A DNA stretch of 22,787 nucleotides from a virus: positions 1 through 22,787 of IMG/VR virus record IMGVR_UViG_3300045988_020612; one strand, given 5' to 3'. This document shows positions 5,670 through 22,715 of this stretch, piece after piece; positions within the stretch are counted from its first letter, which is position 1; each line of letters opens with the position of its first letter. Below the pieces are notes generated by a model that had not been told where the DNA came from, searched no databases, and saw only the letters and a list, made by a program, of their open reading frames with translations. A program made the translations under genes and the position numbers.

Positions 5670-6950
5670 CTATCTCCTTAACAATTTGTTAACCCGTCTA
5701 ATCTTAGCATCTACGTCCTGTCTATCTTTGACAAAGATAAGGTTTTGAAGTGCGTATCTAATAGCGTCGATACAGTGGTTATAGCTATCACACGGCTTGT
5801 TGATGTACTCGTTTGTGTGCTTATCTTTCTGCCATGTATAGTTCTCAAGTTCCTCAATCGTCTTAACACATCTCTCATCAACGATGATGTCGAATTGCTG
5901 CAAGAACTGAATCCCTTGAAGGACTGAACCTTTACCCTTATCTACTGGAACAGCTCTACGCAAGCCCAGCGTTTGCAATTCAGCAATAGATTTCTGCTCT
6001 GCCGAGTCGGCCATAATCACCTCTTTTGAATAGCCAAGGCTAGTGATAGCTTCTGCTATTTGGTTGTTAAGCAACCCCTTCTTGACGTATTCCTCCAAGA
6101 TATATAGCCGCTTGTTCTCTCGGTCTATTTTGACATGCATAAACGCCGTGGGGTCGTTAGTAAACCCAAAGTCCAGACCAAAAAAGGACGGCAACTGTTT
6201 AAGCTCGTCCTTGTTAAGTAATCTCTTTTCGTATTTCGGAAAAACTAGTTTGTCGAGTGTCGCGAACTCACCCAAAGCATAGATTTTGTAATAGGCTTCA
6301 TTTCGATTTGCTAACTCCTCGATATTCTCCTTGGTCAAGTCGTCCAGGAACCGATTATCCTTATACGTTGTTTGGTAAACCACTGTATTCTTAGGATCCT
6401 TCACAAAGAACGCATTATATACCCAGTTAGCTTTAGACACGGGGTTAAACATCAAATAGATTTGCTTCTGTTTGTGAGCTTTATCCCTCAAGCGAAGCGT
6501 CAGCTGCGTGTAATCATCGAGCGTAAATTCTGACGCTTCTTCCATAACCACGTCCGAAATGCCTTTGATTGACTTGATTTTCTCTGGGTTATCCATCCCT
6601 TTGAAAATCAACTCAGCGCCGTTTGGTAACTCAATGCGGAATGCGCTCATGTTAACCTTGCATAGATTAAGCACACCAAAGTAAGACAAGGCTGCTTGCA
6701 CGTCCGCAAACACCGAGTCACGAACCGTAGAGCCTACCTTACGCAATATCAATATCTTACGGGGTTTATCCCACTTTTTAAGAGCTTTGAGAACAATCTT
6801 CTGGAAGACCCCGTGACTCTTACCGCTAGACGCTCCGCCGTAATGTACCTCAGTAAACGTGTCATAATCAAACAAATGTTCATAGATGTGTCGATTAAAC
6901 ACCCTGCTTGGATTGATTTCAAGATTAATCGTCATTCCATTCACCAACAT
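5670..6950 (-). CDS. terL: Terminase large subunit (PBSX/Terminase_3-like)
   Basis: 426 aa. Has an N-terminal Walker A-like GGASSGKS. It lies between TerS and portal, and its start overlaps the end of TerS. Confidence 0.9.
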   Translation of the reverse strand: MLVNGMTINLEINPSRVFNRHIYEHLFDYDTFTEVHYGGASSGKSHGVFQKIVLKALKKWDKPRKILILRKVGSTVRDSVFADVQAALSYFGVLNLCKVNMSAFRIELPNGAELIFKGMDNPEKIKSIKGISDVVMEEASEFTLDDYTQLTLRLRDKAHKQKQIYLMFNPVSKANWVYNAFFVKDPKNTVVYQTTYKDNRFLDDLTKENIEELANRNEAYYKIYALGEFATLDKLVFPKYEKRLLNKDELKQLPSFFGLDFGFTNDPTAFMHVKIDRENKRLYILEEYVKKGLLNNQIAEAITSLGYSKEVIMADSAEQKSIAELQTLGLRRAVPVDKGKGSVLQGIQFLQQFDIIVDERCVKTIEELENYTWQKDKHTNEYINKPCDSYNHCIDAIRYALQNLIFVKDRQDVDAKIRRVNKLLRR

Positions 6951-7495: not shown

Positions 7496-7933
7496 TTAAT
7501 CTCCCAGAAATACAAGGCATTCGCCATTGCGGTAATTCTCCGCAAACTCCAAAATTGCCTGCTCTCTCATTCGGTAGTATTCACTTTCAGAATATCCAAG
7601 GTCCATATAGACTTCAATGTTGTACTGTTTTCTACTCCTGCAATAACACTCTATCAATATCTGACTGTAACGCCTATCTGATAATGCGTTGATAGCTCTA
7701 ACAATAGCTTGTAAGTCTTGTTCAGCGGCTACCTTGCGTGTTACCATGCTTTCGGTCTGGCTGTGAACCATTCCATCGAATGACTTGGGTTCTAACGAGA
7801 ATGAAGCTGTCACTTTAGGGGCGTATTCCAAGCCCGCTATCCGTGTTAGCATGCGATACCTTCTTAGTACCTTTATAGCTTTCTTTTTAGTTGCGGTTTT
7901 ATCTACTTCCGCAAATAGATTGATACTTGCCAT
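7496..7933 (-). CDS. arpU: ArpU-family phage late transcriptional regulator
   Basis: 145 aa. The N-terminus LFAEVDKTATKKKAIKVLRRYRMLTRIAG and the position immediately upstream of terS are typical of ArpU/RinA-type regulators (recollection). Confidence 0.7.
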   Translation of the reverse strand: MASINLFAEVDKTATKKKAIKVLRRYRMLTRIAGLEYAPKVTASFSLEPKSFDGMVHSQTESMVTRKVAAEQDLQAIVRAINALSDRRYSQILIECYCRSRKQYNIEVYMDLGYSESEYYRMREQAILEFAENYRNGECLVFLGD

Positions 7934-7957
7934 GACACCCCTCTTGTGTGATATAAT
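7927..7957 (+). promoter_or_regulatory. Candidate + strand promoter antisense to the arpU leader
   Basis: TTGCCA (7927-7932), 19-nt spacer, TGa TATAAT (TG at 7949-7950, hexamer at 7952-7957). The -35 overlaps the arpU start codon. Confidence 0.35.
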
Positions 7958-7979
7958 AGTTGTATCGTGTTCAAAGAGT

Positions 7980-8006
7980 GCCGGCCATCGTGTCGGTCTT
8001 TTTTTT
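7980..8006 (+). terminator. Intrinsic terminator oriented on the + strand
   Basis: Stem CCGGC/GTCGG (7981-7985 pairs with 7992-7996), 6-nt loop, then TC plus a T8 run ending at 8006. Confidence 0.5.
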
Positions 8007-8304
8007 GTTTATAGCTCAAGAAACGTTAAGAGATTATATTGAAAAGATTGAGTGTTTATTCTTGGGGTGTTTCTCAAGCCTTTTATCACCTCCTTTCTAG
8101 CCAAGACACCAGCAAGGTCTTTGGCTTTTGATTTGTAATGCGATATCAATAAGAAAGAGGCTTTTTCACATCCTTTTTTCTTAAATTTGCTGGGTTTGTT
8201 TTGAGCAAGGTCTGTCAGCTTGCTCGTGTCGAAAAAGTGTTAAAAAAGTGTCCAAGCCACTAAAAACCTATATCCATTTTATTTTTAGTGTTTTGACAGA
8301 CAAT

Positions 8305-8347
8305 GACTGGCAAGAGGAATCGAACCCCTTGAGTAACCATTCCAGCC
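8305..8347 (-). ncRNA. tRNA-like minihelix A (acceptor-like stem plus canonical T-arm, no D or anticodon arm)
   Basis: The minus strand reads GGCTGG-AATGGTTACTC-AAGGGG-TTCGATT-CCTCTT-G-CCAGTC. It contains GGTTCGATTCC, the tRNA T-arm consensus. Confidence 0.35.
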
Positions 8348-8369
8348 TAGATATAGAGAAATCATTATC

Positions 8370-8392
8370 GGGGATATTCCCCTTTCGTTTTT
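8370..8392 (+). terminator. Hairpin plus T-rich tail, + oriented (or a structural hairpin of a minus-strand RNA)
   Basis: GGGGA-TAT-TCCCC followed by TTTCGTTTTT. Confidence 0.3.
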
Positions 8393-8552
8393 GAAATAAT
8401 ACAAGAATTAAGTTGGATGAATTATGGAGATTTCTGACCTATATCTGCTTGCAGGCATAAGCCTTGAATAATCACGCCACCAGTAAGACGCTTTAGATTT
8501 GTGAATGAAATAAAAAAGGATTCCTCGATTCTAATTTCTTATTTACTGGTAA

Positions 8553-8594
8553 TAGCTAGCAAGGGAGTCGAACCCTCGTAAACCGTTCTAGCTA
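8553..8594 (-). ncRNA. tRNA-like minihelix B, a paralogue of element A
   Basis: The minus strand reads TAGCTAG-AACGGTTTA-CGAGGG-TTCGACT-CCCTTG-CTAGCTA. It contains GGTTCGACTCC. The 5' arm of the outer stem includes the TAG stop of the upstream CDS. Confidence 0.35.
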
Positions 8595-9299
8595 CACGCC
8601 TAATGCGTAGGCTGTATAAAGAGCTTTCCTGACCGTTGCTTTATTACGACCTACCTTGCCCTTAGTTCTATATTTAAGAATGATGCGATCAACTTCATTG
8701 TCCAATCTCTCGCTCCACTCATAGTTATTGAAGACAAAATCAATAATTTCACTGAATAATTCTCTTGAAAGTAACCCTTCCATTTGGATTGCCTTTAACG
8801 GCGTTAGTGTAGCTTTTTCCGCATAGCACAGATTGAGGGCGTTTTGGGTTCTGTTAGCATCTTTCTGGTCGCAGTCCTTAACGTCTCTAATATAGTTGTT
8901 TAAGTTATTAGGGTGTTTCTTGCGTAGTTCTTCCACTTCTTCCTGGAACCGTTTAAACAGCCCCTCTGGCAGTCCTGCGTTGGCTTTATCTAACACTGTG
9001 CGCGTGGTTTTGCCCCTTGTGTAGTGTTGTGACAGATATGCTTGTAGGTCGTTATAAAGCTCATCAGAAATGATACCTTCTAACCTCTCGACAGTTTGAG
9101 GTGAGATTCTCTGGCGTTCAACGACTGCGCTATTAAACGCCTGATATATAATGCGTGCTTGCAGTTCGTCACATTGTCTTACTTTTTGAAAGAATTGCTT
9201 ATAATCTCTCAGATGTGCCTCTTTAAGTGCTGCATGCTCACTGGCTAACCTTGAATGCAACTCTTTTGTCAGTCCGGAATATTTGTAGGTTTTGCTCAT
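8592..9299 (-). CDS. Hypothetical early protein with an internal tandem duplication
   Basis: The start was moved to the ATG at 9299 (MSKTYKYSGL...), which forms an ATGA overlap with the YopX stop. Two ~85-aa repeats are present: GLTKELHSRL...LEGIISDELYNDL and GLPEGLFKRF...MEGLLSRELFSEI. Confidence 0.65.
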   Translation of the reverse strand: MSKTYKYSGLTKELHSRLASEHAALKEAHLRDYKQFFQKVRQCDELQARIIYQAFNSAVVERQRISPQTVERLEGIISDELYNDLQAYLSQHYTRGKTTRTVLDKANAGLPEGLFKRFQEEVEELRKKHPNNLNNYIRDVKDCDQKDANRTQNALNLCYAEKATLTPLKAIQMEGLLSRELFSEIIDFVFNNYEWSERLDNEVDRIILKYRTKGKVGRNKATVRKALYTAYALGV

Positions 9300-9685
9300 G
9301 AGCTCACCTCTAATAGTTCCGGATTCTTGTATATATTTCCTGCAATTTCGCAGTCGGTATGTCGTAGCCACAATTCACATCCGTATTGCTTAGAATCAAG
9401 GCGATATGCTCCGCCTCGATGTCTTACAACTTCGTAATAAGTTGGCTCAGAATAGACATTCTTAGCCATTTTGACTACATCCCCCTCGAAGATTTCTTTG
9501 CCATTCTTGTCGGTCAGTCCAGTTGATTGCATTAAAACGATATCATCGAATTTGTAGTAATTTGTCCGTTCGAAAAAGAGTGTCTTTACAGAAATTTCGC
9601 TTTTTCCGAAATCGATAGACATAATATCATCAACTTCGTACATTGTTTTATGGATTTTATCCCACGCTCTATATCTTGGAATCAT
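9296..9685 (-). CDS. YopX-family protein
   Basis: Contains MIPRYRAWDK...LMQSTGLTDKNGKEIFEGDVV...GNIYKNPELL, the classic YopX signature. Confidence 0.85.
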   Translation of the reverse strand: MIPRYRAWDKIHKTMYEVDDIMSIDFGKSEISVKTLFFERTNYYKFDDIVLMQSTGLTDKNGKEIFEGDVVKMAKNVYSEPTYYEVVRHRGGAYRLDSKQYGCELWLRHTDCEIAGNIYKNPELLEVSS

Positions 9686-9990
9686 TGGCCTCGCCCCCTC
9701 AAATAGCTCGGGATGTCGTCCCCGACCTGCACGCTATCGTACTGCTCTTTGCTCACTAGGAACTTACCATACGCCCCACAATCAAGCGTATAGAGTTTCC
9801 CTACCATTTCCTTGCCGGTAATCTTTCCGTGCAGTACAGTGGCGTTATCGGCCTTGTGCACCACGATAGCTTCTACTGGTCTGTTAACTACTCGTAGAAC
9901 AGTGGTCACGTTAATGGCTAGGGAAACCACTAGCAGAATTGTAGCCACGCTTAGGTCTCTATAAGTCGTCTTCTTTGACAAACGTTCCAT
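9682..9990 (-). CDS. Hypothetical protein with an N-terminal membrane anchor
   Basis: 102 aa. One hydrophobic helix (VATILLVVSLAINVTTVL). RBS AAAGGAAAG. It overlaps the upstream gene by 32 nt. Confidence 0.6.
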   Translation of the reverse strand: MERLSKKTTYRDLSVATILLVVSLAINVTTVLRVVNRPVEAIVVHKADNATVLHGKITGKEMVGKLYTLDCGAYGKFLVSKEQYDSVQVGDDIPSYLRGRGQ

Positions 9991-15008: not shown

Positions 15009-16919
15009 TTATTCTTCCTCACCTTCGTTATACTTCTTGAATCTAAGAGTTAGAGCAGTGATACCTGCTGCAATTACTACGAGCCCCAAAGTGCTAGCGA
15101 TGCCTTCTTTTTCACCAGTATGTGGAAGAGTGCCACTGTAAACGGGTGTATTTGCCACTTCTTTTAGCTCAGAATCGTTTTTATAAACAACCTCGGTAAT
15201 TTCTACCTCTTTTGTCTTTGGAGCGTCTGCGGGCTTGTTAGGCACCTTTTTAGGCTCCACCGGTTTTTCTGATGTTGGTTCCTCTGGAATGTGCAACTCT
15301 GGCAAATCGAGGATAGGTGCGTCATTCGGAATCACACCGCCTTCAAACGGTGGCAATTCTCGCACCTCTGGGATTCCAGGAATGCCACCTTGGAACTCAG
15401 GTTTGTAATGTACAGGCGCTTCATTTGGCACTGTGCCGCCGTTCCATTCTGGTTTATCCAAAACTGGAGCGTCGTTTGGCACGGTACCGATTGGCTCAGT
15501 ATACTCTGGCAATTCTCGTACCTCTGGAATACCAGGGATACCGCCCTCAAATTCTGGGATGTCCACTGTTGGTGGGTCAAGTGGAACGACACCACCGTTA
15601 AACTCTGGTGTTTCGTCTGTTGGTGTTTCAACTGGTGTAGCTGAAACATTTTCGTATTTGTCGACCTTAACAGTTGGCGCTGCTGGTTCTTTGATAGTTG
15701 GTGCTACTGGTTCAACTGGTTTGATTGGGAGTGTTGAAACCGGAATTGTTGAGTTGATAGCGAACCACTGCCAAACTCGGCCATCATTTCCGAAGTGGAA
15801 ACTCATTTTTCCATCTTTGGTAAGCCCAACGATGCCACCCTTGTAAAAGTTAGGGCTATCGAAGCTGTCCCACTCACCGATTACACTTTCATCGTTTGAG
15901 CTATCAGCGTAGGCTTTATTGCCGTCGTGGTTTACAATTGTTGAACCATTGATTGTGATGAATCCTGCTTCGTTTGAAACATACTCAATCTTGTCATCGT
16001 AAAGCTCACCTTTGCCACGGTTTAGGGAATTAAACCCAAACAGTGCGTCTTTGGTCAATGCAATAAGTTGTTTGTTAGCGTCGTAGAATCGAACATTAGT
16101 AGCTACATCAATAGCCTTGCTGAAATTCATGAGACCGATTGTGATTGTTGGATCATTGTATAGAATTGCGTAAGTGTCAACGTCTGGTGTGTAGTCGTAC
16201 TCTACGGCAGCAATTTTTTGACCATTGTAAGTGCTGTTTTCAAGCCCTTCATAGCGAACTGTTGTAGTTTCACCAGCTTTTAGGGCTACGTAAGTACCGC
16301 CGTTGATAAATTCGCTATCTGGATTGAGGACAGTGTTAACCAAATAATCTTTATCCCCTACTTCCGCAGTTTTGGCAGCATCTTGCACTTCCTTTTCATC
16401 AACCACGTTACCTTTTACGACTTTATGAGTGGCGTTTGGTTCACTGGCATTGTTGTACACCAAACCTTGCTCGGCCACTTCTGAAAGATTACCTTCTTTC
16501 TTGGTGTTCGCCTCTGCCTCTGCCATGTTCTTTTCATAAGCTGCCTTGTCTTCAACGTATTTAGCTTTGTCAGCGTCATATTTAGCTTGAGCGTCTGCGT
16601 AAGCTTGTTTTTCAGCGTTGTATTGGCTAACTACCGAATTAATTTCGCTAGCTTTTTCATTCATTGCGTTTGCTGCTTGATCTTGAGTAAGGTTGTTAAC
16701 TGTATTACCAGTTTCGACATTTACACCGGCAGCCTTGGCATTATCAACTGCTGCAGTGAGCTGTTCAGTTTGCTGAATTGGTGTCACTGTGATTTTTCCT
16801 GCAACCTCTGTATAGACATTGCTAGTTGGTTGTGTTTCACCAGCGTGAACTACTGCCCCTCCAAGGAACGCTGTGGCTAACGCAATTGCTGAAAGTGTTG
16901 TAATTTTAGATGTTTTCAT
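15009..16919 (-). CDS. LPxTG-anchored surface protein of the antigen I/II V-region / GbpC family
   Basis: Signal peptide MKTSKITTLSAIALATAFLGGAVVHA. Ala-rich heptad region YNAEKQAYADAQAKYDADKAKYVEDKAAYEKN. V-region-like blocks: GLVYNNASEPNA, VRYEGLENSTYNGQKIAAVEYDYT, DPTITIG, FYDANKQLIALTKDALFGFNSLNRG, WDSFDSPNFYKGG. I recall these resembling S. mutans SpaP/GbpC. There are Pro-rich PEFxGG repeats, then LPHTG, a hydrophobic segment and RFKK. Confidence 0.9.
   Translation of the reverse strand: MKTSKITTLSAIALATAFLGGAVVHAGETQPTSNVYTEVAGKITVTPIQQTEQLTAAVDNAKAAGVNVETGNTVNNLTQDQAANAMNEKASEINSVVSQYNAEKQAYADAQAKYDADKAKYVEDKAAYEKNMAEAEANTKKEGNLSEVAEQGLVYNNASEPNATHKVVKGNVVDEKEVQDAAKTAEVGDKDYLVNTVLNPDSEFINGGTYVALKAGETTTVRYEGLENSTYNGQKIAAVEYDYTPDVDTYAILYNDPTITIGLMNFSKAIDVATNVRFYDANKQLIALTKDALFGFNSLNRGKGELYDDKIEYVSNEAGFITINGSTIVNHDGNKAYADSSNDESVIGEWDSFDSPNFYKGGIVGLTKDGKMSFHFGNDGRVWQWFAINSTIPVSTLPIKPVEPVAPTIKEPAAPTVKVDKYENVSATPVETPTDETPEFNGGVVPLDPPTVDIPEFEGGIPGIPEVRELPEYTEPIGTVPNDAPVLDKPEWNGGTVPNEAPVHYKPEFQGGIPGIPEVRELPPFEGGVIPNDAPILDLPELHIPEEPTSEKPVEPKKVPNKPADAPKTKEVEITEVVYKNDSELKEVANTPVYSGTLPHTGEKEGIASTLGLVVIAAGITALTLRFKKYNEGEEE
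15297..15614 (-). repeat. In-frame Pro-rich repeats inside the adhesin gene
   Basis: PEFNGG, PEFEGGIPGIPEVRELPEY, VPNDAPVLDKPEWNGG, VPNEAPVHYKPEFQGGIPGIPEVRELPPFEGG, IPNDAPILDLPE. The segment GGIPGIPEVRELP occurs twice. Confidence 0.85.
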
Positions 16920-19850: not shown

Positions 19851-20216
19851 ATGGATTTGAATAAGCAAAGAGGAAGCAGAATTGAAAGTTTGAGAGCTAG
19901 CAAGGGTATTAGTCAGCTTGAATTAGCGAAAATGTTAGGTTATAAGTCTGATTCAACTATTTCAAAGTGGGAAAGCGGCGCTAGCATTCCAACGGGAACA
20001 AAGATTGTGAAATTAGCTCAAGTTTTGGGGACTTCGACAGATTACATTCTTTTTGGAGACGGTCCAGAAACCACCGAGGAACAACAACCAAACACCCACG
20101 ATATCGATGAAATCATCGACAATGCAATGATGTTCGACGGGAAACCGTTGAGCGAGGATGATAAGCGGGCTATCCGTGGCATCATTGCGGGATATATGAG
20201 CAGCAAGGAAAAGTGA
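19851..20216 (+). CDS. XRE/cI-like phage repressor (ImmR-like)
   Basis: 121 aa. HTH segment ISQLELAKMLGYKSDSTISKWESG. It is followed by an ImmA-like protease gene. Confidence 0.85.
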   Translation: MDLNKQRGSRIESLRASKGISQLELAKMLGYKSDSTISKWESGASIPTGTKIVKLAQVLGTSTDYILFGDGPETTEEQQPNTHDIDEIIDNAMMFDGKPLSEDDKRAIRGIIAGYMSSKEK

Positions 20217-21272: not shown

Positions 21273-22715
21273 ATGGCAACACATAAAGTCGCTATCTATG
21301 TCCGAGTATCAACCACATCGCAGGTTGACGAGGGCTATTCAATTGACGAGCAGAAAGCAAAGCTAACAAGCTACTGCGAGATAAAGGACTGGAATATATA
21401 TGACATATACACAGACGGTGGTTTCTCCGGTTCTAACACGGAACGCCCCGCACTAGAGCAACTAATAAGAGATGCAAAGAGAAAGCTGTTTGATACTGTA
21501 CTGGTGTATAAGCTAGACCGATTAAGTCGCAGTCAGAAAGATACACTCTATCTGATTGAAGATGTATTTCTGGAAAATGATATAGAATTTGTCAGCCTAC
21601 TCGAAAACTTCGACACCTCAACGCCATTCGGTAAGGCAATGATTGGATTATTGAGCGTGTTTGCTCAGCTCGAAAGGGAACAAATCAAGGAACGGATGCA
21701 GCTAGGCAAATTAGGGCGGGCAAAGTCTGGCAAATCTATGCAGTGGGCAAAGACATCTTATGGCTATGATTACATCAAAGAGACTGGCACGCTCTCAGTC
21801 AATCCATATCAAGCCTTAATCGTCCGAAAGATGTTCGAATGGTATTTATCGGGTATGTCGATAACCAAGCTCAGAGACACCCTAAATGAGCAATATGGGC
21901 AAGATAAAGAATGGAACTATAGAACAGTTAGGGTTATCCTGTCGAATCCGGTATATTGTGGATATAACCAATTCAAGGGTCAGATATTCCCCGGCACCCA
22001 TGAGCCTATCATATCCGAGGAAGATTTTAACAAGACACAAGAGGAAATCAAAACAAGGCAAAGGACAGCCGCCCAGCGATTCAATCCCAGACCATTTCAA
22101 GCTAAATACATGCTTTCCGGTATTGCTCAGTGCGGCTATTGTTCAGCCCCGCTTGCTATCAAGCTAGGCATGATCCGGAAAGATGGCACACGCTTAGTTA
22201 AATACGAGTGTAAGCAGCGACACCCTCGGAAGACCAAGGGCGTGACAGTATATAACAACAATGCAAAGTGTGATTCTGGGTTCTACTTCAAAGATGATAT
22301 CGAGCACTTTGTCTTGACCGAAATCAGCAAACTGCAAACTGATTCAGACTATATCGACAAGCTATTTTCAAACACCGGCAAAGAGACAATAGACCGGGAT
22401 AGCTACCAGAAACAGATTGACAATCTGACCGCTAAAATTAGCAGACTTAATGATCTATACATTGACGATAGGATTTCACTAGAAGAATTGCAAAAGAGGT
22501 CAAGCGACTTCATGGCAGAAAGAACAGCTCTTGAAAAAGAGCTAGACGCTGACAAATCTGCTAAAACCGTAGAGCGCAAGAAAGATATTAGACGGGTGCT
22601 TGACACCAAGGATATCTTCACGCTTGATTATGAGCAGCAGAAAGCCATAGCACGCGCCTTGATAAGCAAGGTTCGAGTGACTAGTGAAACTATCGTTATT
22701 TTATGGAAATTATAG
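21273..22715 (+). CDS. int: Large serine recombinase (prophage integrase)
   Basis: 480 aa. Resolvase catalytic N-terminus VAIYVRVSTTSQ ... YKLDRLSRS. Cys-rich zinc ribbon (CGYCSAPL...YECKQRH). C-terminal coiled coil. Confidence 0.95.
   Translation: MATHKVAIYVRVSTTSQVDEGYSIDEQKAKLTSYCEIKDWNIYDIYTDGGFSGSNTERPALEQLIRDAKRKLFDTVLVYKLDRLSRSQKDTLYLIEDVFLENDIEFVSLLENFDTSTPFGKAMIGLLSVFAQLEREQIKERMQLGKLGRAKSGKSMQWAKTSYGYDYIKETGTLSVNPYQALIVRKMFEWYLSGMSITKLRDTLNEQYGQDKEWNYRTVRVILSNPVYCGYNQFKGQIFPGTHEPIISEEDFNKTQEEIKTRQRTAAQRFNPRPFQAKYMLSGIAQCGYCSAPLAIKLGMIRKDGTRLVKYECKQRHPRKTKGVTVYNNNAKCDSGFYFKDDIEHFVLTEISKLQTDSDYIDKLFSNTGKETIDRDSYQKQIDNLTAKISRLNDLYIDDRISLEELQKRSSDFMAERTALEKELDADKSAKTVERKKDIRRVLDTKDIFTLDYEQQKAIARALISKVRVTSETIVILWKL

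Follow-up and report, generated by a model that had tools for sequence, protein, structure and literature searches.

A structured RNA leader and a predicted antisense RNA between the early genes and the late activator of a Streptococcus prophage

What occupies the 658 nucleotides (nt) that separate the last early gene from the late transcriptional activator gene in a Streptococcus prophage, and how might this gap bear on the activator? The window, i.e., the whole 22,787-nt stretch analysed (positions 1 to 22,787 of virus record IMGVR_UViG_3300045988_020612), is a salivarius-group prophage, and blastn matches of the gap lie in S. salivarius and S. thermophilus phages. A preliminary description of the window had proposed a structured non-coding RNA locus with tRNA-like elements at this early/late junction, and the covariation reported below bears that proposal out. 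Judging from sequence, we give about an even chance to the reading that the gap combines a modular structured leader of the activator mRNA on the sense (minus) strand, acting in processing and stability, with an antisense RNA of ~42 nt, and that it would control the activator in cis. The leader is kept at the early/late junction in ~200 loci, upstream of three unrelated-looking late-activator types, and probably helps time the switch to virus assembly. Its ingredients are known kinds combined, namely a tRNA-like structure with pseudoknots, a structured phage leader and a cis-antisense RNA. The gap is bounded as follows.

8592 to 9299, minus strand: last early gene, DUF1340 / phrog_1814 (Pfam DUF1340, E=6e-75), stop codon TAG at 8594-8592
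7496 to 7933, minus strand: late transcriptional activator, ArpU/RinA-like, phrog_248 (E=2e-43), with TerS and TerL next
7945 to 7938, minus strand: Shine-Dalgarno (SD) sequence of the activator, AAGAGGGG

No other gap on the minus strand comes close in size to this one (8591-7934). Its longest minus-strand open reading frame (ORF) has 46 aa and a TTG start, and 12 small ORFs on both strands were each intact in at most 22% of 70 aligned homologous gaps. Because none of these candidates was kept in homologues, hidden small genes were rejected (0/12 conserved) and the gap is genuinely non-coding; the earlier claim of a 658-nt interval lacking a conserved ORF on either strand, between the DUF1340 stop (8594-8592) and the activator start (7933), is upheld. 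Public records annotate small 'hypothetical proteins' over the leader or the antisense module, such as gp33 of phage T12 (locus L381, 1921-2127) and Javan87_0032 (L393). The gp33 call and similar annotations are probably spurious calls over non-coding RNA.

The sense-strand leader and its covariation

The window has two tandem units, each opening with a minihelix followed directly by the 5' strand of a pseudoknot. In the order of the sense strand, the leader and the one plus-strand hairpin within it comprise:

8593 to 8554, minus strand: minihelix 1 (MH1), acceptor-like stem AGCTAG 8593-8588 / CTAGCT 8559-8554
8577 to 8561, minus strand: T arm of MH1, stem GAGGG 8577-8573 / CCCTT 8565-8561, T loop TTCGACT 8572-8566
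8549 to 8543, minus strand: 5' strand CCAGTAA of pseudoknot a, 4 nt after MH1, pairing with TTACTGG 8486-8480; its class covaries
8491 to 8474, minus strand: hairpin H2' (GCGTC / GGCGT), with TTACTGG 8486-8480 in its loop and the conserved AAATCTAAAGC before it
8466 to 8452, minus strand: conserved hairpin H3', CAAGGC-TTAT-GCCTG
8370 to 8392, plus strand: hairpin GGGGA-TAT-TCCCC followed by TTTCGTTTTT, terminator-like for antisense transcription in a terminator scan
8347 to 8305, minus strand: minihelix 2 (MH2), stem GGCTGG 8347-8342 / CCAGTC 8310-8305
within MH2, minus strand: T arm, stem AGGGG/CCTCT, T loop TTCGATT, motif at 8326-8316; A-TT follows MH2 at 8304-8302
8301 to 8294, minus strand: 5' strand GTCTGTCA of pseudoknot 1, 3 nt after MH2, complementary to TGACAGAC 8217-8210
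8290 to 8258, minus strand: optional hairpin H0 (CACTAAAAA / TTTTTAGTG), 96.5% paired, missing from many relatives
8251 to 8232, minus strand: ACACTTTTT repeats (plus strand AAAAAGTGT)
8225 to 8203, minus strand: hairpin H1, GAGCAAG / CTTGCTC, with the invariant 9-nt loop CTGACAGAC at 8218-8210
8193 to 8187, minus strand: 5' strand CCAGCAA of pseudoknot 2, pairing with TTGCTGG 8115-8109
8124 to 8101, minus strand: hairpin H2 (GCCAA-a-GAC / GTC-TTGGC), whose loop holds TTGCTGG 8115-8109
8098 to 8085, minus strand: SD-like AGAAAGGAGGTGAT, a 14-nt perfect match to the complement of the 16S rRNA 3' end
8080 to 8013, minus strand: domain H4, long-range stem GGCTTGAGAAAC 8080-8069 / GTTTCTTGAGCT 8024-8013

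The whole gap folds better than its dinucleotide shuffles (z -3.4 for the sense and -2.2 for the antisense strand) and its helices covary across ~200 related loci, so its features exceed chance. Covariation, a check that the preliminary description had named, was counted for the minihelix, H0, pseudoknot 1 and H1 in a MAFFT alignment of 111 sequences (A2). There 92.1% of cells were paired compared to 86.9% in shuffles (0/500), and 214 double-sided changes stood against 69.8±9 in shuffles (0/500). When the partners were slid by 1-3 columns as a control, 35-52% of cells were paired. Double-sided change affected 6 of the 7 pairs of H1 and 4 of the 6 pairs of the acceptor stem, and RNAalifold placed a 6-bp helix at the base of H4 with 3/6 pairs changed on both sides.

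Since MAFFT misaligns H2 and pseudoknot 2 between subtypes, and the pseudoknot register between species, the CCAG-type pseudoknots (a and 2) were counted with motif anchors in 165 unique instances. These were paired in 97.5% of cells (93.8% in shuffles) and showed 76 double-sided changes, compared to 1.1±4.8 in 1000 shuffles, none of which reached 76. Position 3 occurs as A-U, G-C or G·U, position 5 as C-G, U-A or U·G, and position 6 as A-U or C-G. Although the cells are not independent, at least five distinct matched variants are present, wobble intermediates included. Seven strand/loop combinations match in total: CCAGTAA/TTACTGG, CCAGCAA/TTGCTGG, CCAGTCA/TGACTGG and CCGGCAA/TTGCCGG, and further TAACCGA/TCGGTTA, GACCGA/TCGGTC and GGCCGA/TCGGTC. 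Pairing of a hairpin loop with a strand outside the hairpin, with compensatory change, as in an H-type pseudoknot, was found for both a and 2.

The hairpins that present these loops behave in the same way. The stems of H2 vary between lineages while its loop tracks the partner strand; phages of S. pyogenes, S. porcinus and S. parauberis have the H2' module too, in which the stems have changed and the loops still match, and H3' recurs as AGGTT/AACCT (Javan423) and AGGCG..CGCCT (T12). Stem variants of H1 include GGACAAG/CTTGTCC, GTCGAG/CTCGAC, GCATCG/CGATGC and GTCAAG/CTTGAC. The virulent S. thermophilus phages 9874, Abc2, D1024 and CHPC572 keep the element with a DUF1340 protein that is only 45-50% identical; their H1 stem (GCATCG/CGATGC) is fully different and their loop CTGACAGAC is identical to that of the window. 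This loop is complementary to GTCTGTCA. All cells of the resulting pseudoknot 1 were paired (100%) and invariant in A2 except for a change from U-A to U·G; because it is nearly invariant, pseudoknot 1 is consistent with pairing and unproven.

Some features of the locus would also fit an element that acts as DNA, such as recombination linkers, protein-binding sites (the iteron-like ACACTTTTT, or GTCTGTCA/TGACAGAC), an origin or a packaging signal. Three activator modules alternate at this mosaic junction, the copy number of the 9-nt repeat varies and pseudoknot 1 is an invariant inverted repeat. However, duplex DNA is not expected to show compensatory changes in stems and in loops with their strands, nor to tolerate G·U on one strand, and in pseudoknots a and 2 there were 32 G·U pairs on the sense strand versus 9 A·C (equivalent to G·U only on the antisense strand). 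The T-loop consensus is, moreover, an RNA motif. We consider a DNA-level explanation improbable.

The minihelices stand out by the motif GGTTCGAnTCC, which occurs exactly twice in the window, on the minus strand at 8574-8564 and 8326-8316. Each consists of a 6-bp acceptor-like stem and, across a 1-2 nt junction, a 5-bp T stem under the T-loop motif TTCGAnT, giving a coaxial acceptor/T stack of ~12 bp with a T-loop cap. The linker between acceptor and T stem is 9-12 nt long, usually with GG, and sometimes absent; that of MH1, AACGGTTTAC, includes GG, and in some relatives the minihelix is a continuous hairpin. Acceptor stems occur as AGCTAG/CTAGCT, AGCCAG/CTGGCT, GGCTGG/CCAGTC, GACGGG/CCCGTC, GGCGAG/CTCGTC, ACCAAC/GTTGGT and CCCCAC/GTGGGG, and T stems as GAGGG/CCCTY, GACGG/CCGTC, AGGGG/CCTCT, AAGGG/CCTTT, ATGGG/CCCGT, GAGCG/CGCTC and GCACG/CGTGC; their G·U pairs fall on the sense strand. 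MH1 begins within the DUF1340 stop codon and is followed by A-TT (8553-8551). All lineages seen have a discriminator purine (A/G) and then T, and in all of them the pseudoknot strand follows the minihelix after 3-4 nt. No CCA is encoded in register; that of MH1 is displaced by 3 nt (ATTACCA). Among 80 IMG/VR loci with a close DUF1340 homologue, the T-loop motif lies 17 nt past the DUF1340 stop in nearly all, and a second copy follows 230-380 nt further on in about half. Gap length in relatives is bimodal (~310-410 nt or ~560-775 nt).

Downstream of the second unit, the SD-like AGAAAGGAGGTGAT is kept as GG(A/G/T)GGTG in relatives, and the ORF behind it is intact in 1/49 homologues. A stabilising SD-like sequence (STAB-SD) is known from Bacillus thuringiensis cry3A, and the window site (8098-8085) resembles it in that a long 5' leader contains a perfect SD-like sequence which no conserved ORF follows; unlike in cry3A, ribosome binding and stabilisation are predicted only. 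By its sequence, AGAAAGGAGGTGAT may be STAB-SD-like, or it may pair with CCTCTTTCT upstream. Leaders of the S. pyogenes type (e.g., L390, 1125-1140) contain ACCTCCTTAC, identical to the 16S rRNA 3' end and hence an anti-SD mimic, which could pair with SD-like sites or with the activator ribosome-binding site. The H4 stem encloses the conserved AATCTTTTCA..ATCTCTTAA and is also present in the minimum free energy fold. Pairing of an anti-SD, ACACCCC at 8066-8060, with the activator SD was rejected as it is not conserved in other activator types.

Several smaller items of the preliminary description can be placed in this fold. Its hairpins GAGCAAG/CTTGCTC (8203-8225), CCAAGAC/GTCTTTGG (8101-8124) and GGGGATATTCCCC (8370-8382) are all present, and it erred in treating plus-strand hairpins as separate features: several belong to the sense-strand fold or to the antisense-strand terminator. 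On the sense strand the element at 8370-8392 reads as an A run and then a hairpin, and the related locus L006 keeps the hairpin as the variant GGAGG-AAAA-CCTCC with an A run. The 'orphan' SD-like AAAGGAGGTG (8087-8096, minus strand) exists, and considering it in isolation was the mistake. Both repeats noted earlier were located again at corrected positions: the 10-mer AGCAAGGTCT at 8111-8120 and 8204-8213 (not 8205-8214) and the tandem AAAAAGTGT at 8232-8240 and 8243-8251 (not 8232-8249). The 10-mer was rejected as a functional repeat, being a by-product of the H1 and H2 sequences that is lost in relatives. The ACACTTTTT unit varies from 1-3 copies between otherwise near-identical leaders (A2 columns ~165-200), which suggests slippage or a repeated binding site.

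tRNA-like elements, GOLLD and ROOL

The two tRNA-like modules reported earlier thus exist, at the two GGTTCGAnTCC sites; the expectation of phage tRNA genes in the gap failed. ARAGORN found 0 tRNA genes in the window and in the related loci L001-L003, the tRNA model RF00005 had no match in the window, and the minihelices consist of acceptor and T arm only, without a D arm or an anticodon arm. No transfer-messenger RNA (tmRNA) was found by ARAGORN, and Rfam gave only T-arm fragments of 17-18 nt at E>1. Real tRNAs do occur at this junction in relatives (L330 and L352); L330 has two tRNA genes (66 and 33 bits) at 2084-2166 and 2328-2388, downstream of the late-activator gene.

These neighbouring tRNA genes, together with a T arm identical to the tRNA consensus, could be taken to mean that the minihelices are decayed phage tRNA genes or attachment-site remnants in a functionless spacer. 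However, in many lineages the two acceptor strands, 5' and 3', form intact, covarying pairs with no D or anticodon arm present, the spacing from minihelix to pseudoknots is fixed and the family is kept across Streptococcus species. Attachment-site remnants are also unlikely because the integrase is a large serine recombinase and not a tyrosine integrase. We regard decay as very unlikely.

The closest structural likenesses are to tRNA mimics. The 3' untranslated regions (UTRs) of tobacco mosaic virus (TMV) and turnip yellow mosaic virus (TYMV) consist of a tRNA-like structure (TLS) and an upstream pseudoknot domain, and these UTRs and tmRNA resemble the leader in that several H-type pseudoknots in series are joined to a mimic of the acceptor and T arm, T loop included. 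In contrast to tmRNA and the viral TLS, the leader lies inside an mRNA and has no anticodon, no tag-reading-frame part and no 3'-terminal CCA. MALAT1/mascRNA, the tRNA-miRNA transcripts of murine gammaherpesvirus 68 (MHV68) and tRNA-punctuated operons use tRNA-like processing signals; they are similar in placing a tRNA-shaped module within a longer transcript, exactly at a gene boundary and with U after the discriminator. Compared to MALAT1/mascRNA and MHV68, the minihelix is the top half of a tRNA only, and its cleavage is predicted. RNase P and RNase Z need no more than a minihelix for recognition, and Pellegrini et al. are said to have found in 2012 that RNase Z of B. subtilis favours U after the discriminator. 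Literature on tRNA fragments of AcrIIIA1 proved unrelated to this element.

The preliminary description had proposed the GOLLD/ROOL class, and GOLLD and ROOL, like the leader, are large non-coding RNAs that Lactobacillales phages encode near the early/late junction, with tRNAs often close by. A cmscan of the window against Rfam 15 returned nothing at the gathering score, and positions 7700-8800 at E<=10 returned noise and two T-arm fragments of 17-18 nt, with no GOLLD or ROOL. Nine related loci had no Rfam match, and neither RF02032 (GOLLD) nor any ROOL model had a gathering-score match in 13 related loci. The GOLLD gathering score is 150 bits; as a positive control, the model scored 267.6 bits (E 1.6e-75) in the related phage locus L352 (IMGVR_UViG_2767802297_000002), so that placing GOLLD in this genomic neighbourhood was right. 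In L352, GOLLD (6037-6437), with a tRNA (6450-6539) directly after it, is found downstream of the late-activator gene, and a copy of the minihelix/pseudoknot leader is found upstream of that gene.

Because L352 holds the leader and a bona fide GOLLD as separate elements, the gap in the window is something other than GOLLD. The leader differs from GOLLD and ROOL in that it has no sequence or structure match to them, is built of minihelix and pseudoknot units and, relative to the GOLLD of L352, lies on the other side of the activator. That the gap is a divergent GOLLD or ROOL member is favoured by size, host group and genomic neighbourhood only; with no match to RF02032 or a ROOL model even at E<=10, and with leader and GOLLD both present as separate elements in L352, we consider this almost certainly wrong at the sensitivity of Infernal with Rfam 15. 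The fallback offered at the time, a new RNA, is the best reading of the gap.

The antisense RNA module

Just upstream of the activator, the plus strand carries a second candidate RNA.

7947 to 8006, plus strand: predicted small antisense RNA gene, extended -10 box TGTGATATAAT at 7947-7957, start near 7964
7980 to 8006, plus strand: its terminator, hairpin 7980-7997 and T run 7999-8006, with G·U pairs on the plus strand

A perfect extended -10 box precedes the terminator hairpin by 41 nt, and the plus strand has 3 terminator-like hairpins where 1.2 are expected. The predicted RNA of ~42 nt would have an unstructured 5' half and is complementary to about -31 to -73 of the activator leader. The arrangement T[AG]TGnTATAAT, 41-43 nt and a T run lies upstream of 110 of 115 unique activator starts, covering all three activator types, and in the window a TRTGnTATAAT promoter, ~42 nt and a terminator likewise stand just upstream of the activator. 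Three different hairpin sequences occupy the terminator position; they fold at -7.6 to -9.2 kcal/mol as antisense compared to -1.3 to -5.3 (mostly -2.4 to -2.8) as sense. The module is also present in phages of S. pyogenes, S. porcinus, S. anginosus and S. suis.

An RNA of this kind may already have been seen experimentally. Spy_sRNA1212757 of S. pyogenes SF370 is a Northern-confirmed RNA of 42 nt (Le Rhun et al. 2016, PMC4829319), placed on the plus strand opposite phage genes, between two hypothetical genes, in the prophage with integrase SPy_1488 (PMC4829319). Its promoter and terminator are convincing and its 5' end is unstructured, and Spy_sRNA1222613 is placed between int2 and hlpA (PMC4829319). 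In Javan487, the record of the SF370 prophage, the predicted antisense module lies at ~9751-9793, a mapping that assumes position 1 to be the integrase end, as in the related Javan491. Then 1212757 + 9793 = 1222550, ~60 nt from Spy_sRNA1222613, so the module coordinate fits within tens of nt. From this fit we infer that the antisense RNA has been detected before; Spy_sRNA1212757 is probably the S. pyogenes counterpart of the module, on the basis of coordinate arithmetic rather than of its published sequence.

Both RNAs, the window copy by prediction and Spy_sRNA1212757 if the coordinate fit is right, are ~42 nt long, have their own promoter and terminator and an unstructured 5' half, and lie on the opposite strand directly upstream of the late activator; they resemble each other in architecture and position but differ in sequence. 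The antisense RNA probably belongs with an sRNA that was seen earlier and never characterised. In function it may be likened to the lambda OOP and anti-Q and the P22 sar antisense RNAs.

Proposed role and distribution of the leader

The window leader is part of a wider family: a pattern for unit 1 (AAATCTAAAGC..GATTATYCAAGG) and blastn with the phage T12 version found the architecture again in 103 phage records from other species. They cover prophages of S. pyogenes (T12, 315.x, SF370, Manfredo and others), S. dysgalactiae, S. canis, S. urinalis, S. phocae, S. parauberis, S. porcinus and S. pseudoporcinus. In all of them the leader is flanked by the last early gene on one side, whose kind varies among several unrelated ones, and by the DUF1492/ArpU-type activator on the other. 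Hairpin stems differ again in these records, and compared to CCAGTAA/TTACTGG their pseudoknots (TAACCGA/TCGGTTA, GACCGA/TCGGTC and GGCCGA/TCGGTC) show a one-base deletion matched on both sides. The idea of a partnership specific to the DUF1340 protein was dropped because the same leader follows unrelated genes in phages of S. pyogenes, S. porcinus and S. parauberis.

In L391, L392, L393 and L397 (S. dysgalactiae, S. urinalis, S. canis and S. phocae), extra covarying hairpins lie ~60-130 nt past the minihelix. Inserted between the minihelix and the pseudoknot strand, they have the conserved loop CYGGAAT on stems GGAC/GTCC, ACGTG/CACGT and ACGAG/CTCGT, and such inserted covarying hairpins were seen in Javan141, 87, 642 and 420. 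The leader is expandable by further modules.

No conserved promoter, terminator or attenuator was found on the sense strand of the gap; in the terminator-like hairpins both the G·U pairs and the T runs fall on the plus strand, and a candidate sense-strand promoter at 8303-8276 (TTGTCT-16-TAAAAT) was rejected since it is not conserved in relatives without H0. Read-through from the early operon is therefore the simplest account of activator expression. The sense leader, built of T-loop minihelices, pseudoknot units and GA-rich and SD-like motifs, would then extend the early operon transcript at its 3' end and at the same time form the 5' leader of the activator mRNA. The minihelices may be cut by RNase P and RNase Z, the latter suited by the conserved U after the discriminator, and cutting would make the activator mRNA independent of the early mRNA. 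A pseudoknot would at once sequester the 5' end so created, and pseudoknot and strong SD-like site together could shield the leader from 5'-3' decay by RNase J. By these means the leader would set the amount and timing of the activator, and the antisense RNA would act as a brake on it, e.g., in the lysogen, via leader pairing or transcriptional interference. In phage 2972, differential RNA-seq (dRNA-seq) found only early and middle primary promoters, and the authors invoke processing and stability for the distinct late pattern (PMC11551762).

The absence of a separate late promoter in phage 2972 (PMC11551762) and the structured nascent RNA at the early/late boundary would also suit RNA-based processive antitermination or attenuation of the HK022 put or EAR-like kind, by which RNA polymerase would be modified and early transcription could read into the activator and late genes. 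However, no intrinsic terminator is conserved on the sense strand in or after the gap, and Rfam showed no similarity to put or EAR. In addition, ArpU/RinA-type activators drive the promoter upstream of terS (PMC3753634, PMC3152322). We think antitermination quite unlikely.

The covariation itself is blind to whether the pairing is intra- or intermolecular, and this leaves some room for a stable trans-acting non-coding RNA, in which released modules flanked by minihelices act on their own as sponges for proteins or ribosomes, as decoys of the tRNA elbow or as multimers held by loop-strand pairing, as in phi29 pRNA or the GOLLD/ROOL cages. The leader is a modular array of 1-4 units, each with its own matched strand/loop 'address', its GGA/GAGG motifs are repeated, and GOLLD occurs in the same neighbourhood of a related phage. 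In contrast, the activator gene always comes directly after the leader and the gene before the leader varies, a placement typical of cis elements, and no sense-strand promoter or terminator of its own was found. A trans-acting RNA is accordingly a minority possibility in our judgement. The comparison with phi29 pRNA extends to its being a phage RNA and to covarying loop pairings that could be intermolecular; there is no similarity otherwise, and pRNA has its own gene and acts in packaging. A bolder version is that minihelices punctuate an expandable array of 'addressed' pseudoknot units, a new modular phage RNA class whose units, once excised by tRNA-processing enzymes, act in trans, either self-assembling through their strand/loop matches like pRNA, ROOL and GOLLD or as tRNA-elbow/ribosome decoys. 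It is doubtful; if true, the lytic late switch would be tied to the state of host translation or tRNA processing.

Several observations weigh against a cis-acting leader with tRNA-like processing signals. The sense leader is known in every member from sequence alone, and, the phages being related and recombining, fewer independent events lie behind the data than the counted cells suggest. Conservation of the leader among salivarius-group loci does not exceed that of the neighbouring gene (78% vs 83% identity). The sequence of pseudoknot 1 could instead be a protein-binding site. T12-type minihelices have TGCRATG in place of TTCGAnT and some members have lost the GG linker, so tRNA mimicry is not universal. 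In phages of S. anginosus and S. suis with the same activator family the leader is absent, which makes it an accessory layer.

No description of the sense leader was found in the literature searched on DUF1340, on tRNA-like elements of S. thermophilus phages and on late-transcription intergenic regions. It occurs in well-studied phages, both the dairy S. thermophilus phages of CRISPR work and the toxin-carrying S. pyogenes phages T12, 315.x and SF370, where it sits at the point at which virion production is decided and is unannotated or listed as small hypothetical proteins. If the leader controls the activator, it would add a new post-transcriptional layer to late-gene timing and could explain the two-primary-promoter pattern of phage 2972. 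Practical handles would be phage induction, the transfer of toxin phages and the design of phage-resistant starters. The orphan 42-nt sRNA detected by Northern blotting gains a probable function and context.

The remaining features concern the setting of the locus. The integrase and a CI-like repressor, both on the plus strand, face a long minus-strand operon with the order antirepressor, ERF, DUF1351 ... YopX, DUF1372, DUF1340, gap, activator, TerS, TerL, portal, capsid.

21273 to 22715, plus strand: large serine-recombinase integrase (Resolvase and Recombinase domains)
19851 to 20216, plus strand: CI-like repressor

The mechanically called ORF of DUF1340 starts at a GTG at 9371 and has 259 aa. 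As all database homologues have 235-236 aa, the true start is probably the ATG at 9299, giving 235 aa. In the early region of the prophage, a 636-aa protein at 15009-16919 (minus strand) has glucan-binding protein C and adhesin P1 N-terminal domains; it is an unusual cargo there, possibly a moron or surface adhesin. In L384 (S. anginosus CP118053.1), GATCGGTAAC / GGTTACCGAT iterons are densely arrayed at positions 800-1100, after a VapE-like primase gene and ahead of genes for a DUF1492 activator, an HNH protein and a small-terminase-like protein, and this array looks like the origin of a satellite or of an element resembling a phage-inducible chromosomal island (PICI).

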